Assembly: GCF_018977255.1 (NCBI RefSeq)
Contig: NW_024704742.1
Coordinates: 63,552,001-63,616,000 of the forward strand
Reading direction: 5' to 3'
Length of the DNA stretch: 64,000 bases
Origin: Callorhinchus milii
Taxonomy: Eukaryota
Of this stretch, positions 1,364 through 58,376 are shown one piece after another. Positions within the stretch are counted from its first letter, which is position 1. Each line of letters opens with the position of its first letter. A program made the translations under genes and the position numbers. The notes beneath the pieces are model-generated. The model was not told the DNA's origin, did not search any database, and saw nothing but the letters and a program-made list of their open reading frames with translations.

Positions 1364-1867
1364 GTAAGTTTTCTTTATGTGATTTGCCTTTTTTTAAATA
1401 TGTAGAGAGAAGCAAGTGGATGTGAAGTGATATATATACCAATTGTGGATGGATTACGACAATTTGTAGTGCAAGTTGTTGAGAAGTTTATAACTGGTAT
1501 TAACTAGGGTGTTCACTAAATTACTGACAAATGGGCAAGGAGTAAATAAATGTCATTAGATTCCAAATTGTATTATTTTTCAGCAATATTTTGAAAGGTC
1601 ACAATAGAAAATGTCTTTGCTCTGTTCAATTTCGGCAGAGTTTAATACAAACCCAAGTTTATGTTGTAAAGCACTTTTGCATTAGCACTGTTTCCCTTGT
1701 TGGAATTTGATACAATTTCTGTCGTTTTTCCTTTTTCTGGGTTTTGAATGAAAATTGCAATCGCACGTTTCTCAGTTTTGGCATTTTCTCTCTTTCTCTT
1801 CCTTCTCCTCCTCACCACCCACCCTGCCCCCCCCCCCCCACCCCCCAAAAAAACAACTTGTTCTCAG

Positions 1868-2018
1868 ACTCTTGTTGTCTAAGAGACTAAAGGAGATGAG
1901 CAATAAAAAAGAGATCCGTGTTTTGAAAGACCTTGATGCCCAGTTGATCGCATTAGCGGCAAAATTAGATTATTCTCTGGACCAAAGAACTAAAGAGATG
2001 AAACAAAGGGATAAGAAG
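1868..2018 (+). CDS. HPF1: HPF1 coding exon (151 nt)
   Basis: tctcag|A...AAG|gtaaga; LLLSKRLKEM...LDYSLDQRTKEMKQRDKK. Confidence 0.95.
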
Positions 2019-2214
2019 GTAAGATGCTGTGCTTTGCCTGGGTGTGGCTGAGGCTGGTGTGAAAGGTAGTTGGTGGCAGTTAACAGTTAGCATTTTCCCC
2101 TGGTGAGGGGGCTTCATGTAGTGTGTTGTGAAACCAAGCACCTTAAACAGACAAGAATGGTGAACATGCATGAGCATTCAAGAAGATATTAAACAAAAAA
2201 ATATATTTTTTTTG

Positions 2215-2500
2215 TCAGCTGGGTGTCTGCTGGACTGCATGGGCCAGGTGGCCTGTTTCTTAGCTGTACCTTCTGTGAATCTATAAAACCATAGTCTTTT
2301 TTTGGTCAGCTGGGTGTTCAACACATGTGGAAACCCATCCCCATGTTTAAGAGTATCCAATCCAAACTGGGATTTCCCTGCATCCCACCTACACATGGAA
2401 ATCCCAGAGATAGATTGTTGGAATGGAATACACACTCCCTTCCTGGAGGACAGCATCCTGTTCACCTAATTCTAGAAAGTATTAGGTGCAGGTTAGCAAA
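2215..2500. repeat. Unclassified composite repeat (CR1 3' tail joined to an unknown element)
   Basis: Reverse-complement similarity to 50060-50335 across the junction. Confidence 0.7.
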
Positions 2501-2841
2501 TGTAATTTTATCAATGAATCAGTGACTGATATTTCCTATATACAGTGGCCAACAACAAAAATTATCCCAGGTACGAATTGGTTACTCATTTCATGGCTGT
2601 GTCCATATTGGCTCCTACAGTTCCCTACAAAGTACAGTCACTAAACTTTACAGTATATCCTGTAATGTTCTCCACTTTGAAATGTCATCCTGACGTAAAA
2701 GGCTCTAAATCAAACGTAAAGATTATTATTGTTACTATTATAAGATGTTCCAGATTATTTAGGATCTTTTGGATTCAAATAGAACCAAGACTTATTCATG
2801 TGTTCCCAGCGTAATTGGTGTAATCTGTTTCTGTTTTTTAG

Positions 2842-3797
<956 letters not shown>

Positions 3798-25046: not shown

Positions 25047-25467
25047 CTGCAAAAACAGGGGGAAAATTCAGACTGAAACAAACACTGGCCAATATGACTT
25101 GTCATTATGAAGCACTTCAGATTTCCGTTTTAAATTGTTCTATTTATCTCACATACACACACACACACACGACACACACTCCCACCCCACATCCAATCAT
25201 TTTAAAATGTTAAACATATTGGATCCAGACAAAAAGCCTTAGGATATCAACTTTGCATAAAATAGTTTGACTTCAGTCACTTACATATAATCATAGGATC
25301 TAAAGGGAGACTGGTATTGCGATTTATTGTAATTCTAAACTCCAATAAAAAACACCATCACCCAATTTCTTGCACAGATTTGTTAAGTGAGAAATTCAGA
25401 CTCGTGTAAGTAGCTAAATTGGCAACAATCTCTCAGCTTTAATGCAAAAATGTTACAAATAGATTAC

Positions 25468-26013
25468 CTTAATTCCAAAAGTGAAGATGGTCATAATAAT
25501 TTTGAATATAAGCGCGAGTGCCAGTTTTCCCATGGCATCATAGACTCCTTGACCAGCTGGTCGGTCTGGAATGTCATCCACCAGTTGGCTGACGTTTGTG
25601 TCGGTCTGATAATCACAAAGTGATGAGGACTCCAGAGGGCCACAGTCAGTGAAAAGTTCTTTGATCAATTCACTTGTGTTCTTTCTTGTGTACTGATTGG
25701 GAAAGGCGACAACTGCTGTAATCACAGTGACTATGATAACTTCCAAGACGGGGAACTTTCCAAACTTTGTGGTTTTCCGACGCCTGCACCAAGCGAGATT
25801 AGCGCGAATAAAGAAGGCTCCCCACAATCCTCCAAATACTCCCAGGAGGATAAAAGGAATCAGTTCAAATAAATACCAGGGAGTATGATACTCCACATAA
25901 AACAGTACCAGGCGACTGTTTCCAAAAGGATTAATGGAACGCAACACAAAAGCTGCCACTAAAGCAGCAAAAAATGACCTCCAAAGAGTTTTCAAGGGAA
26001 AATAGTAGCTAAC
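25468..26013 (-). CDS. CLCN3: CLCN3 coding exon (546 nt)
   Basis: acag|GTT...AAG|gtaatc; [15 protein letters not shown]...[10 protein letters not shown]. Confidence 0.97.
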
Positions 26014-26701
26014 CTGTAAGAAGAAAGCAATGTTTTAGGTGATGAAATAAGCAAACTGCATAATGTTGATCTTCCAAAATGCAAGTACAATAAATAATTC
26101 AAAATAGTAAGTCAAGTCTTTCAGAGAGCCAGCACAGGCTTGATGAGCCCAAAAGTCTCCTTTTTGTGCTCCTTTTTCTACATTTAATCATGGACTACTT
26201 TAAAAACATAAATCCTAATTAACTGTCAATCATTATAGGCTGTGCATTCTGCCAAGATCCAATAAACTGGTGAAACTGGCTCAACGGGCTGAAGTTTTTT
26301 GTTACGTTTCCTAAACCGATAATAATTTCAGAATATCCAGATTTCAGTGTCACTATACTGTAGCCGGGGGAGGGAGGAAACTCATTTCTCCATATTAATT
26401 TTAGTGTTTTTCTTGTAATGCACGCAAGTATGAAAACAGCAACAAATTACATTTATATGGCGCCTTTCACATCCCAAGGTGCCGGTGGTTTGTACCCGAG
26501 TCGAGGTGGAAGTCAAGGGGGCAAAAAAAATGACAAAAGCCGGAGTCAAAGACGAAGAACCGACCTTGAAGGCTGTGAGGGAAGGATGAAACATAGAAAC
26601 TATACCAACTATTTTCCTAAAGCATAATGCTTTACAAAATAATTCTCTTTATGTTTCTGTAAACAGAAGTAGCAAATAGTCATGAATGCTGAACAATTTC
26701 A

Positions 26702-33228: not shown

Positions 33229-33541
33229 ATAATAATAATAATCCTTGCATTTGATATAGCGCTTTTCACGTCTTCTAGACATCTCAAAGCGCTTCACAGA
33301 ATATACTGTAAAGTGAATTGATTGTATATTTGTGCGTGAAATGTGGCAGCCAATTGCGCACAGCAGTGTCCCACAAACAGTCGTGGATTGAAGTGGCCAA
33401 TTTATTATTGTTTTTTTCTTGATGGATTATTATCAGGTGTGTGGAGTAAGGAAACTTGCCCAAGGTTTCTCCCTGCAGGGAATCGAACCCAGCTTTTGCG
33501 CTTGTGAGCCGAGTGCTCTAACCACTGAGCTACAGGACTCC
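33229..33541 (-). mobile_element. Full-length tRNA-SINE
   Basis: A and B boxes, body, hairpin tail and (ATT)n. Confidence 0.9.
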
Positions 33542-34160
33542 ACTACGACCTACAGGCTTTGGAATCCCAGTCTTATCCCAGAACCATTCACTAAGCTAGT
33601 TTTCTCTGCCTCATACCTCAACATTACAGGAACTCTCATGCATACCTTGGTTAAATACTTCAGACTTTACTCTTCCAATCTCTTGCTCATCAGCTTCCCT
33701 GTTCTACCCTTCGAAAGCTCCAGACCATCCAGAACTCTGCCATTTCTGAATGCATTCTCTCCCGATCAAGTCTCCACAACCCCGTCACCCCCATCCTCAC
33801 CAGGCTTCACTGGCTCCCCAGTCCCCAGTAATCATGTTCAAGATTGTTGCCTTCATGGCCTTGCCCTGCCATATAAATATAAATTTGTATTGAACTGTAT
33901 TTGTAACAACATGAGTGAACAACATTGGAGGTGTTACTTTCCATTCTGCTCACACAATTCCTGTCAGGTAGACTCTTAGCCCTGCTACCAACGAAAGAGA
34001 TGCGAGATGTCTTAACTGAGGCAAAAAAAAAATACAAAATGAAATAATTTGTACAAAATACAAACTTCTCAGCTCCACAAATCTCTGTGCAGATGAGAAT
34101 GGCTTGTTTCCTTTTCCCTTAGGTTCATATAATTATTAAATGAACTTACCTCTCTGTGTC

Positions 34161-34348
34161 AAAAGGAAAGTGAGTCAATGTTTCGGGTCCACAACACAAC
34201 CATTCTGTGTCGTTCTGATGAAGGGTTGTGGACGCAAAACGTTACTCACTTTCCTTTCTCCATAGATGGCTGCCTGACCTGCTGAGTGTTTCCAGTGATT
34301 TCTGTGTTCGTTTCAGATTTCCAGCATCGGCAGTATTTTGCGTTTTGT
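34161..34348. mobile_element. Fold-back element with a hammerhead-like motif (probably Penelope-like-element derived)
   Basis: Inverted arms; CTGATGA...AAAACGTT at 34215-34243; flanked by a 15-bp direct repeat (14/15 identical); homologous to 43612-43840. Confidence 0.75.
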
Positions 34349-34352
34349 TTAC

Positions 34353-34510
34353 CTTTCTGTGTCGTTCTCGATCTTTGCATTTTTCTCGCACCCAGTCAAT
34401 GGTGTGAAAATCATCGTAAGTTCCAACACCTGGGATAGGCTCATCCAGCAGATCCAATAAATGCGTGGAGCTGTTTATACCACCTCCATTTGTCATTGTA
34501 TAAGTGGGTC
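34353..34510 (-). CDS. CLCN3: CLCN3 coding exon (158 nt; contains the internal Met of the short N-terminal isoform)
   Basis: taaag|GA...AAG|gtaaac; [10 protein letters not shown]...[37 protein letters not shown]. Confidence 0.96.
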
Positions 34511-40374: not shown

Positions 40375-40690
40375 AATAATAATCCTTGCATTTGATATAG
40401 CGCTTTTCACGTCGGGAGGACGTCCCAAAGCGCTTCACAGAACACATTGTAAAGTGAATTGACTGTATATTTGTGGGCGAATGCGGCAGCCAATTGCGCA
40501 CAGCAATGTCCCACAAACAGTCGTAGATTGAAAGTGACCAATTTATTATTGTTTTTGGTTTTTGGAGGGATTATTATTAGGCTCTGTGTGGAGTAAGGGC
40601 ATTTGCCCAAGGTTTCGCCCTCTGCCTGGAATTGAACTCAGGTCTCTCACTTGCAAAGCGAGTGCTCTAACCACTGAGCTACAGGACTCC
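40375..40690 (-). mobile_element. Full-length tRNA-SINE, short subfamily
   Basis: Near-identical to 49-364. Confidence 0.92.
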
Positions 40691-42957: not shown

Positions 42958-43597
42958 AAGGTTGGTGTGTACAAATAGTTGCTGTTTACCAACACCAAGC
43001 AAACATGCATCATAGGATTTTTTTTTGCTAAGAATTTCTGCACAAGTTGTAAAGGATACTTGGAAGACCAAGTGAGTTCTGCCCTTGACTTCTTCAATTA
43101 GAACAGAAGGCAACAATGTGGGAGATTTAAAAGTTCAATTCAACTCCATGAAACCATAGTAGATAATACTGCAATAACCATGATTGAAATCCATTAAAAG
43201 CCTACCGAAAAATTTCAAAAAAGGAGAGTGGCTCACCAATTTGGATTTAGTTGGGGTACCTGCATTGCCCAATGCCATGATGGCTGGTCAAAACCTTGTC
43301 TTCTGTAGTCATTCACTATTCTGTACTGCGCATGTGGTCCTTCAACCACAGCCAGTAAGAGCACGACGGGTCGGGACGAAGGTTCCCATGATGGTCTCGC
43401 ATGGAACACTGCATATGCTGCTTCAAAGCCAGTGGGTGCGCATGCGATGAAGGGTCCCTTTCACTCTCTACGTGATCAGACATTCCTCACCCACTCCACA
43501 AGATCATTTTCTCTTTGAGCCCCCCACCCTGCTGCCGTGCGTAATGACGTGGATGTAATGTCCCAGGAGGGGGGGCACTGGGGTGCAATTATGCAGT

Positions 43598-43837
43598 CAA
43601 GAACTGTAGTCGCTGGGAACACTCAGCAGGTCAGGCAGCATCTATGGAGAAAGGAAAGTGAGTCAACGTTTCAGATCCACGACCCTTCGTCAGAACAGAG
43701 GACATCAGGACCCATCAGAATGGACTTGTGGACCCGAAACATTGACTCACTTTCTTTTCTCCATAGATGCTGCTGAGTGTTCCCAGGAACTTCTGTCTTT
43801 GTTTATAGATTTCCAGCATCTGCAGTCTTTTGCGTTT
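43598..43837. mobile_element. Fold-back element with an intact hammerhead core on the - strand
   Basis: Inverted arms at about 43612-43680 and 43728-43786; flanked by the exact direct repeat TGCAATTATGCAGT (43584-43597 and 43838-43851). Confidence 0.8.
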
Positions 43838-44511
43838 TGCAATTATGCAGTGTTCCTTTGGAAGTAGGCGGATTTGTGCAAATAAATTAAAGTGGATTTA
43901 ATAGGAAATTCAAAGGGAGTTGGGCAGATGTACTACATAGACGATTATATGATTTGGACAGATCAGAATTCTGTGAGTTTTACTGTATATTCTCCAGCTC
44001 TAAACCCTGCAGAGCACGATAAGCTATTGAGTCAGTAAAATAACCAATTTGTTATTTATTGGACACCTCAACTTGTTCAGTAATTTGCATCACGTCTACT
44101 TACCAAAGTAAGCCTGGAATAATCAAGTTGATGGGAGAGAAATAAACCAAATTTGCATTTTGAAAGGAAAACCAGGCATGTTCGTGGTTGTATAGTTTCT
44201 GCAGTTAGTATGTCTGTTTTTTTTTTGGTGGAAGACACTGTTTTTTAAAGACTTTTTAATGTCCTTAACTGAATACAAAAAATGGATGAATTCATGCAAC
44301 AAATCATCCAGATTTTTGTATTGCCTACAAAGACAGTCACTATGTCACAGTAAAATTCTGTGAAGCGTTTGAGATGTCTCAGCAAGGTGATATGGCACTA
44401 TGTCATATGCAAGGATTATTATTCTCGTTATTACAGTGGTATTGCTAATCTAGATCTGATCTGAGACAATGTACATAAACTACTGTACACAAACAATGTA
44501 CATAAACTAAT

Positions 44512-45267: not shown

Positions 45268-45582
45268 ATAATAATAATAATGCTTGCATTTGATATAGCG
45301 CTTTTCACGTTGGGAGGACGTCCCAAAGCGCTTCACAGAACACACTGCAAAGTGAATTGACTGTATATTTGTGGGCGAACGCGGCAGCCAATTGCGCACA
45401 GCAATGTCCCACAAACAGTCGTAGATTGAAAATGACCAATTTATTATTGTTTTGTTTTGGAGGGATTATTATTAGGCTCTGTGTGGAGTAAGGAAACTTG
45501 CCCAAGGTTTCGCCCTGCCTGGAATTGAACTCAGGTCTCTCGCTTACAAAGCGAGTGCTCTAACCACTGAGCTACAGGACTC
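45268..45582 (-). mobile_element. Full-length tRNA-SINE, short subfamily
   Basis: Near-identical to 49-364 and 40375-40690. Confidence 0.92.
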
Positions 45583-46287: not shown

Positions 46288-46657
46288 AAGTCCTACTGTA
46301 ACTCAGTGGTTAGAGCACTCGCCTCACAAGCGAGAGACCTAGGTTCAATTTCTGGCAGGGCAAAACGTTGGGCAAGTTTCCTTACTCTACACTCCTCTAT
46401 TTACCTAGGAAGTAGGAACCCGAATGTTCGTTGATTAGTGGATCGCTTTTTCGAGGTTAATACTTCCTTCCAAAAAATAATAATAAATTCATCACTCAAT
46501 CCAAGACTATTTGTGGGACACTACTGTGCACAATTGGCTGCTGCGTTTCACCCACAAAATATGCAGTCAATTCACTTTACAGTATATTCTGCGAAGCGCT
46601 TTGAGACATCTCGAAGACGTGATGAAGCACTACATCAAATGCAGGGAATATTATTAT
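46288..46657 (+). mobile_element. tRNA-SINE, long subfamily
   Basis: CTCAGTGGTTAGAGC A box, GGTTCAATT B box, central insert and tail. Confidence 0.85.
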
Positions 46658-53124: not shown

Positions 53125-53480
53125 CAGTGCTGTGGCTCAGTGGTTAGAACACTTGCCTCGCAAGCGAGAGGACCTGGGTTTGATTCCCAGGAGGGCGAAA
53201 CATTGGGCAAGTTTCCTTACTCCACACGCCTCTGTTTACCTAGCAGTAAGTAGCAACTCAACTGTTAGTTGATTGTCAGATCGCTTTTCCGGGGGTAATA
53301 ATTGCTTCAAAATAAATTTTAAAAAATTTGGTCACTCAATCCACAACTGTTTGTGGGACACTGCTGTGTGCAATTGGCTGCTGCATTTCACCCACAAATA
53401 TACAGTCAATTCACTTTTTAGATGTCCCGTGAAGTGATTTGAATCGTCTCAAAGACAATATTATTACTATTATTATTAAT
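53125..53480 (+). mobile_element. tRNA-SINE, long subfamily
   Basis: TGGCTCAGTGGTTAGAAC head; CCTCTGTTTACCTAGCAGTAAGTAG central segment. Confidence 0.85.
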
Positions 53481-54285: not shown

Positions 54286-55204
54286 CCCTCTCACTCCAAC
54301 CCCTACCCATCCCTCCCTCCATACCTTCAAACTTGCCTCCACTTCCTCTCTCATCACCACTAAAACCCACATGAAACCCACCACCTGCTCCCTGAGCCCT
54401 AACCCTACACTTCTCCTTACCTCCCAGCTCCACCTCCAACCCCCCCTACTCACAGACATCATAAACTGTCCATTGGCACCATTCTCACCCCTCTAAAAAC
54501 AGCCGTCATCACTTCTATCCTCAAAAAACCCTCCATAGACCCATACCTGCTCTCAAACGACTGTCCCATCTCCACCTCCCTTTCCAAGGTCCTGGAACGA
54601 GTCGTTGCTTCCCAGTTTCACTCCTTCCTCTCCCTCCACTCCCTTCACGAAGCCCTGCTACTGGGTTTCTATGCTGCCCACAGCACCGAAACAGCTTTGG
54701 TCAAAGTGACAAATGACATTTTGTCCATCTGCGACCAGGGCTCTCTGCCTCCTCGTCCCCCACGACCTCTCTGCTGCCTTCGATAACGTTGACCACTCCA
54801 TCCTCTTCCACCACCTCTCCTCAACCTTCATGGTTCTTCCATGAATGGTTCAGATCCTATCTCTCACACCGTCTCCACTTCATCTCCACAAACGGCTTCT
54901 CCTCTAGCCCTCGCACCATCTTGTGAGGAGTTCCTCAGGGCTCTGTCCTTGGTCCCCTTCTTTTCAGTATGAATATGCTCCCTCTTGGTGAGATCATCCG
55001 CAGACATGGGGTCAATTTCTTCATGTATGCGGATGACACCAAACTCGATCTCTCTGCTTCCACTCGAGTCCAGGACCACTGCTGTCCTGACAGAATGTCT
55101 GTCAGACATCAAGTTATCAACTTTCTACAGTTGAACGTCAACAAGACCTCATTATTGGCTCCCATCAGCACCCCCACACTTCAGGCACTGACAGCATCAC
55201 CATC

Positions 55205-55519
55205 TAATAATAATAATGCATTTGATAAAGCGCTTTTCACGTCTTCTCGACGTCACAAAGCGCTTCACAGAATAGACTGTAAAGTGAATTGACTGTATAT
55301 TTGTGGGCGAACGCGGCAGCCAATTGCGCACAGCAGTACCCCACAAACAGTCGTAGATTGAAGATGACCAATTTATTATTGTTTTTTGTTTTGGAGGGAT
55401 TATTATTAGGCTCTGTGTGGAGTAAGGAAACTTGCCCAAGGTTTCGCCCTCTGCCTGGAATTGAACTCAGGTCTCTCGCTTGCAATGCGAGTGCTCTAAC
55501 CACTGAGCTACAGGTCTCC
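55205..55519 (-). mobile_element. Full-length tRNA-SINE inserted in L2
   Basis: Short-subfamily body. Confidence 0.9.
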
Positions 55520-56639: not shown

Positions 56640-57440
56640 ATAGGAGGTCCGAACCAGCCGAGCAGAGGCAGCGGGCAGTGGAGTGAGGGATAAGCAAACT
56701 GGATAGGTATGGAGGGAATTAAGTGATTTGGAAACAGTGAGGGGATCTTGAAATCGATTTGTTCGGTGATTGGGAGCCAGTGGAGCCTGGCAAGGACTGG
56801 TGTGATGGGGATATATTTAGTGCGGCTGAGTATCCATACGGCGGAGTTTTGAATTAATTGGATTTTGTGTTTGGTGGAGCTGGGGAGACCAGCAAGGACG
56901 GCATTGGAATAGACCAGCCAAGAAGTGTCAGGGAGTGGACGAAGGTTTCAGCGACGTCAGTTGTGAGGTATGGACGGAGGCGGACAATATGGCGGAGGTA
57001 GAAAAAAGCAGTCCTGGTGAGGGGACAGATGTGTAGTAGAAAGGAAAGCTGGGGATCGAACCTGACGCCTAAGTTGCGCATGGGTTTGGAGAGTCTGTGG
57101 GAGAGCTCTGGGAGGTCGAGGAGTTCAGACCCGCAGGAGAGAAGACATTGACAGGAGCCAAAAAGTATGGCTTCCTTTTTGCCGACATTCAGCCGCAGGA
57201 AATTTGTGCTCATCCAGGCCATGATGTCCATCAAACAAGCTGACAGGACATCAGTGAACTGGTAGTCACAGCTGGAGGAGGAAAAGTAGATTTGGGTGTC
57301 ATCCGCATACATGTGGAAGTTGACAATACGATGCGATTACATCACCAAGAGGGTGCATATAGATGAGGAAAAGAAGGGGGCCAAGGATGGAGCCTTGGGG
57401 TACCCCGCAGGTGACCAGGCGAGGGTGAGAGGAAGAAACA
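56640..57440 (-). mobile_element. L2 LINE ORF2 remnant
   Basis: YADDTQIY, WMSTNFLRLNVGK and RNLGVRFDPQLSF motifs. Confidence 0.88.
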
Positions 57441-58216: not shown

Positions 58217-58376
58217 CTGTGGAAACATCACCATCCAGTAAGTTATCATCCTCAGATCCTGTAAAATCCATGATGACTCCGGCTCCGTCTAACAGTTCCT
58301 CATCACTACTGGCACTGGTTATACTGTTGTAACTGTTTCTATAATATCCTCTGGAAAACAGTTGCTCTGACTCCAT
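58217..58376 (-). CDS. CLCN3: CLCN3 first coding exon of the long N-terminus (160 nt CDS; the exon starts at 58391 after a ccag acceptor, so a non-coding exon lies further upstream)
   Basis: [38 protein letters not shown]...DDNLLDGD; donor G|gtgaga. Confidence 0.97.

Follow-up and report, generated by a model that had tools for sequence, protein, structure and literature searches.

Among the closest described systems are the minimal hammerhead motifs (min-HHRs) carried by Penelope-like elements (PLEs); these were found genome-wide both as single motifs and as pairs on opposite strands separated by 100-700 bp (Cervera and De la Pena 2014, PMC4209133). In vitro, single min-HHRs gave no cleavage and dimers low cleavage (PMC4209133), and what PLE hammerheads do is described as unclear (PMC8557442). 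PLE insertions typically have a 5'-truncated copy next to them in inverted orientation and, at one end, a tail of 30-40 bp (PMC8557442). Examples from rotifers show target-site duplications (TSDs) of 8-10 bp, a head-to-head arrangement and a one-end tail, and self-priming was proposed there (PMC3846280). [quoted passage not shown] Non-LTR retrozymes have been reported in one chondrichthyan (bioRxiv 10.64898/2026.07.22.740005), and the available rows of Table S1 and Fig. S3 of PMC4209133 name no cartilaginous fish.

We analysed a stretch of 64,000 nucleotides of Callorhinchus milii DNA, referred to as the window. The reading frame at 25456-26034 (minus strand) matches ClC-3 structures with an E-value of 7e-109, which identifies the host gene as CLCN3 on the minus strand. 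The hammerhead-bearing element sits inside a 23.7-kb CLCN3 intron (58216-34511), between an exon that ends at 58217 and the next that starts at 34510 (minus strand), and its motif lies on the CLCN3 sense strand; both the host gene and the sense placement had been predicted from the sequence. The element, hereafter copy 1 (43584-43851), is a 240-nt insert enclosed by exact 14-bp direct repeats and is built as follows.

43584-43597, no strand: left TSD, 14 bp with an AT-rich centre, an exact 14/14 match to 43838-43851
43598-43696, minus strand: arm 1, the element end in CLCN3 sense, 99 nt, beginning 3 nt ahead of the core and running to the end that lacks a tail
43642-43664, minus strand (CLCN3 sense): acceptor-like stretch (branch-point-like sequence, pyrimidine tract and AG) just 3' of the hammerhead motif
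43662-43696, minus strand: minimal type I hammerhead motif, fitting the PLE consensus of PMC4209133 Fig. S3
43696-43694 with 43664-43662, minus strand: stem I, 3 bp (G-C, U-A, U-G)
43693-43687, minus strand: core CUGANGA
43686, minus strand: extra base A, between 9 and 10.1
43685-43681 with 43677-43673, minus strand: stem II, with G-U at 10.1-11.1 and at the third pair
43672-43669, minus strand: GAAA of the core
43669-43666, minus strand: palindromic ACGU
after U 43665, minus strand: predicted cut site
43697-43725, no strand: locus-specific 29-nt spacer between the head-to-head arms, where depth falls and the covering contigs are other loci
43726-43837, plus strand: arm 2, a 5'-truncated copy beginning at loop II, with no CUGANGA, a 9-nt deletion and an ACGT that has decayed to ACAT
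43802-43837, plus strand: 36-nt extension past the inverted repeat, at this end only, resembling a PLE tail
43838-43851, no strand: right TSD, an exact 14/14 match to 43584-43597

Arm 1 opens with GTT, three bases ahead of the core, and lies head to head with arm 2. The inverted arm matches extend over 43635-43680/43728-43773 (91%) and 43598-43629/43770-43801 (81%), with 10 differences in 74 aligned bases. Hence the original prediction was right on the exact 14-bp direct repeat and on the second, inverted, 5'-truncated arm. When 20,000 intervals of 240 nt were drawn at random from the window, 5 had such a repeat at both ends (within 5 nt). In contigs of runs from two studies (X1, X2) the two copy 1 junctions are present with 0-1 differences; the 29-nt spacer is spanned by none of the contigs listed from these runs, and no empty site was seen among the 15 joints listed of 274. 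The idea that the spacer consists of stuttered copies of the motif start was dropped, the likeness being visual only (0 exact 7-mers shared with the arms). A perfect 13-nt inverted match between 43403-43415 and 43844-43856, overlapping the right TSD, is probably due to chance.

On the minus strand, 43693-43665 reads CTGACGA-A-GGGTC-GTG-GATCT-GAAAC-GTT, exactly as had been claimed, and the assignment to minimal type I hammerheads of the Penelope type is upheld by its fit to the published PLE min-HHR consensus. Copy 1 carries the CUGANGA and GAAA core, UH at the predicted cut site, the extra base A43686, the palindromic 15.2-16.2 and a helix I of 3 bp, within the consensus range of 2-5 bp. The full descriptor (3-bp stem I, core, stem II of at least 4 bp, palindromic stem III and H17) had one match in the window, compared with one in 150 Markov-1 random 64-kb windows. 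The loose pattern CTGANGA N8-30 GAAAC likewise had a single match in the window, which is at chance level (1.13 expected; reached by 68 of 100 shuffles), and is therefore not used as support. Since minimal hammerheads without helix III are not expected to score in Rfam, we do not count it against the motif that the covariance-model search proposed as a check, an Rfam scan of the window, returned no hammerhead family at E<=10. A profile made from 86 distinct min-HHR motifs of metagenome loci had the two copies as its best window matches (E 0.058 and 0.18); it is not used as support because these E-values are weak and the training pattern was derived from the window. Upstream, an 11-nt piece of the plus strand (43446-43456) resembles a hammerhead start, probably by chance.

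The family was surveyed by placing contigs of four runs on the 601-bp stretch 43420-44020 at 80% likeness. Placed were 10,719 (X1) and 2,379 (X2) contigs of organism A, the same species, 22,488 of organism B and 20,229 of organism C; these counts cannot be read as copy numbers and also take in another, far shallower repeat at 43876-43990. In all four runs depth was concentrated on the element (43588-43839). The left flank (43525-43587) had no or almost no cover in organisms B and C, so that the orthologous site did not appear in them. Other loci show head-to-head joints with different fillers. The computed consensus bears on the claim that the hammerhead is intact. G is read at 43673 in 68-77% of the depth and at 43675 in 93-97% (four runs), so that the family stem II has five Watson-Crick pairs; the consensus pair G10.1-C11.1, which is G-U in copy 1, is thus held by the family majority. 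GACCC is also read in both truncated arms of the window. Because the family stem II is Watson-Crick, the two G-U pairs of copy 1 are decay, and "intact" holds for its core but not for its stem II. Core positions are absent from the 40 difference rows listed (of 57), which is no test of constraint, since the 80% filter favours conservation. The "small" separate non-coding family of the original prediction found no support in that form, the family being very large and present in three organisms; the mobile origin and the sharing with a second locus (34161-34348) stand. A new family type is not needed because the anatomy is that of the published endonuclease-positive PLE insertion unit (PMC8557442, PMC3846280).

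The second locus (copy 2), about 80% identical by blastn, is the sole other family copy in the window, and its parts are the following.

34146-34160, no strand: TSD of copy 2, 14/15 with 34349-34363, holding a displaced CLCN3 donor copy GTAAGT (minus strand)
34161-34195, minus strand: inverted arm, 35 nt, starting at loop II
34199-34216, no strand: spacer copied from the copy's own flank, 17/18 with 34351-34368
34212-34348, plus strand: full arm with tail, having the same GTT start and the same tail end as copy 1
34349-34363, no strand: TSD at the exon, spanning the end of the CLCN3 coding exon 34510-34353 (minus strand) and its donor

Copy 2 has lost G12, so that GAAA reads AAAA, a decay that had been correctly noted. 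The two copies share a common plan: one arm opens with the GTT that precedes the core, and the inverted arm begins at loop II. Copy 2 was inserted four bases into the intron that follows exon 34510-34353, and its TSD duplicated the CLCN3 donor, so that GTAAAC now stands after the exon and the GTAAGT copy lies 203 nt downstream. Of the two donors GTAAGT looks the stronger, and the copy 2 spacer holds a third copy of the exon end. Use of the second donor, 203 nt downstream, would be predicted to shift the frame and lead to a stop near 34245. In copy 1, arm 1 supplies a candidate cryptic acceptor (43664-43642, minus strand) with 15/17 pyrimidines, which by pyrimidine content is in the top 6 of the intron's 693 YAG sites. 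An ATG directly follows the AG of this candidate.

The window contains other repeats, given below.

291-362, 33472-33536, 40622-40684, 45510-45581, 46296-46358, 53126-53198 and 55451-55513: seven near-identical tRNA-like heads (Rfam tRNA)
54927-55289, plus strand: RT fragment (RVT_1, E 1.4e-07)
56857-57336, minus strand: RT fragment (RVT_1, E 4.2e-04)

Each of the seven heads is followed by shared sequence, and they look like a tRNA-derived SINE family. Both RT fragments read as LINE-like and have no match to 120 PLE proteins. Of the repeats flanking copy 1, that at 43876-43990 has a summed depth of about 3,000 in runs X1, X10 and X11, and that at 43441-43503 is low-copy and is also covered in organism B.

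The element is likely, in our view, to be an insertion unit left by an endonuclease-positive PLE, severely truncated at its 5' end and dead on arrival. It would then comprise two head-to-head copies of the element end (pseudo-LTR), one of them with a tail, within the 14-bp TSD, and the hammerhead would be a passenger from the pseudo-LTR. Both window copies have the inverted, 5'-truncated, head-to-head copy of such units; the one-end tail, 30-40 bp in those units, is 36 nt in copy 1, and the TSDs agree at 14/14 (copy 1) and 14/15 (copy 2) positions. The tail asymmetry is seen in copy 1 only; the inverted arm of copy 2 stops far earlier. By analogy with the Anolis protein, whose two RT start sites bound the tail (PMC11167929), one arm with and one without the tail would be expected. 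From this anatomy we infer the enzyme and the order of steps: the GIY-YIG nuclease of the element would have made staggered nicks in AT-rich DNA, the RT would have copied just the final ~140 nt of the RNA, beginning with the tail and ending slightly beyond the hammerhead, a second short copy in the opposite orientation would have been added, either primed at the other nick or self-primed by fold-back, and repair would have filled in the 29-nt spacer and the TSD.

Since the parent ORF of the family was not found, PLE membership is argued from the RNA motif and from the way the insertion is built. The 120 PLE proteins gave no tblastn or profile match in the window, peptide-frame searches at E<=1 yielded no autonomous RT/GIY-YIG partner of the family, and the element's peptide frame had no Atlas match; the partner that the original prediction proposed to look for was thus not encountered in the window or by peptide and pattern searches. 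With full HMMER the peptide frame had two matches, neither an RT, namely a 71-aa frame without a Pfam family and a 5,940-aa protein; the latter, considered as an autonomous partner, was taken as a chance match. Family patterns had 0 matches in viral contigs and 0 in metagenomes. The general motif pattern matched at least 121 metagenome stretches and 4 genome contigs, and none of those listed is similar to the arms (blastn, E<1e-3). In three of these loci (L118, L122 and L124, the last two being bacterial MAG contigs) the pattern lies just upstream of a conserved-looking reading frame, apparently inside coding sequence, and is likely there by chance. Head-to-head motif pairs occur in 6 of the 124 loci listed, two of the six apparently being the same locus. 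One locus, L001, has the following layout.

L001:1049-3620: PLE-like unit in a public metagenome contig
1665-3449: RT ORF
3582, plus strand: hammerhead motif
1087, minus strand: inverted copy of the motif

In L001 the same motif type lies 133 nt behind the RT ORF of 595 aa, with the inverted copy upstream. PF26215 is present in all 120 homologues listed and RVT_1 or GIY-YIG in many, and the Pfam scores of L001 itself are under the curated cut-offs. It has no blastn similarity to the window arms; judged by its sequence, L001 is a member of another family, an analogue and not the parent.

Formation of stem III requires a second motif on the same strand. Such a dimer partner is missing from the window, which has one pattern match in total. 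In the CLCN3 pre-mRNA the fold-back arm 2 is transcribed first and forms pairs with 43680-43662. Imposing stems I and II while keeping the core open was computed to cost 30.0 kcal/mol in the whole element and 24.6 kcal/mol in the co-transcriptional fragment, compared with 10.7 kcal/mol without arm 2 and 4.3 kcal/mol for the isolated motif, and all eight hammerhead pairs have a probability of 0.0 in the folding computation. These models support the expectation that the short stem I and the sequestering arm would leave cleavage weak or absent (penalty of 24.6-30.0 kcal/mol; no partner in the window), and suggest that the copy 1 hammerhead in the CLCN3 pre-mRNA probably does not cleave in vivo. 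The available portions of the literature searched gave no effect size for the loss of G10.1-C11.1 or for the GUU triplet. Intronic PLE stubs with hammerhead motifs should not be mistaken for active host ribozymes.

The start base shared by both copies is not predicted by random truncation. A tentative and somewhat doubtful explanation is that the hammerhead fold, and not cleavage, sets the insertion ends, with the start at helix I, where there may be a splice junction or an RT stop, and the inverted arm at loop II through fold-back priming on stem II. Were this so, a very high-copy, ~140-nt non-autonomous PLE derivative would offer tens of thousands of junctions as data on the role of the PLE hammerhead, and if the shared start points held genome-wide, its function would become testable from sequence alone.

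The same start points could, though we think this unlikely, belong to a SINE-like family that is non-autonomous and descends from a PLE pseudo-LTR, the strongest version of the original prediction. In it a discrete ~140-nt RNA starting just before the hammerhead would be mobilised in trans by a PLE protein, and its start would be fixed by a promoter, by a splice junction or by the RT stopping at the ribozyme fold. The GTT start in two of two copies and the loop II start in two of two inverted arms agree with this, but a sample of two copies is too small. Agreement among loose ends behind 43695/43696 is 0.36-0.41, versus 0.53-0.61 into the tail (before 43608-43614), and this low agreement hints that many copies meet unrelated flanks at 43695/43696; several subfamilies with differing upstream sequence would, however, lower the agreement too, and the pile-up of loose ends at 43696 is forced by the window's own arm boundary, so that its count is no test. 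The upstream consensus shared by the loose ends finishes with a pyrimidine-rich stretch and an acceptor-like AG at 43696, which recalls the intron of D. virilis Penelope, whose 3' end maps to the 5' end of helix I (PMC4209133), yet a subset continues into shared upstream sequence, as for a longer parent. Non-autonomous hammerhead derivatives of PLEs have been proposed (bioRxiv 10.64898/2026.07.22.740005).

It is very improbable that the inverted arms are the functional ends of a DNA transposon resembling a MITE, or of a tandem non-LTR retrozyme: the element is short and non-coding and has a fold-back shape with a TSD, but its inverted arms miss the termini, leaving an unpaired tail of 36 nt in copy 1 and of about 85 nt in copy 2, arm lengths differ between the copies, and the spacers are locus-specific. 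The TSDs are 14-15 bp of unrelated sequence, and neither copy has the fixed terminal inverted repeats with a short fixed TSD of a MITE. Tandem head-to-tail repeats are absent from the window, and each locus has one core in an inverted arrangement in place of the tandem head-to-tail complete hammerheads of a non-LTR retrozyme. Co-option as an intronic ribozyme or regulatory hairpin modulating the CLCN3 pre-mRNA, in the manner of the intronic hammerheads conserved in amniotes, is scarcely credible: domesticated intronic hammerheads exist (PMC6155905), the motif is in sense orientation in the CLCN3 intron and the core is unchanged in copy 1 while copy 2 lost G12, but stem II no longer has the family state, its decay including the G10.1-C11.1 pair, the arms differ at 10 of 74 bases as under neutral decay, so that an unchanged core of 13-16 nt is unremarkable, and the motif is sequestered in the fold with no dimer partner in the window.

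A truncated PLE insertion unit is thus the reading we prefer, and we compare it here with known systems. A literature search, which fell short of most subscription journals, Repbase, Dfam and preprint supplements, found no dedicated study of shark PLE hammerheads. The motif resembles the metazoan PLE min-HHRs (PMC4209133) in its 3-bp helix I, CUGANGA with the extra base, 5-bp helix II, GAAA, palindromic CG and UH; unlike that consensus, copy 1 has G-U at 10.1-11.1, and the motif is known here without a link to an ORF. With the insertion units of Penelope/Poseidon and Neptune (PMC8557442, PMC3846280) the unit shares 5' truncation, the head-to-head inverted copy, the one-end tail and the TSD, whereas its arms are reduced to the last 35-140 nt, without an ORF, and its TSDs measure 14-15 bp as against 8-10 bp in the rotifer examples (PMC3846280). 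As in Poseidon PAc of Anolis carolinensis (PMC11167929), the hammerhead precedes the RT start sites by about 100-130 nt, the two ends are one tail apart and the target is AT-rich; the PAc ORF starts in stem II, whereas the frame from the ATG position of the core stops early here. Like non-LTR retrozymes (bioRxiv 10.64898/2026.07.22.740005), the unit is non-coding and has a type I hammerhead and a proposed origin from a PLE pseudo-LTR, but retrozymes are tandem, head-to-tail and dimer-capable and the unit here is an inverted pair with one core. Set against these systems, the locus is a real but ordinary retroelement scar, of a kind described in 2014 (PMC4209133).
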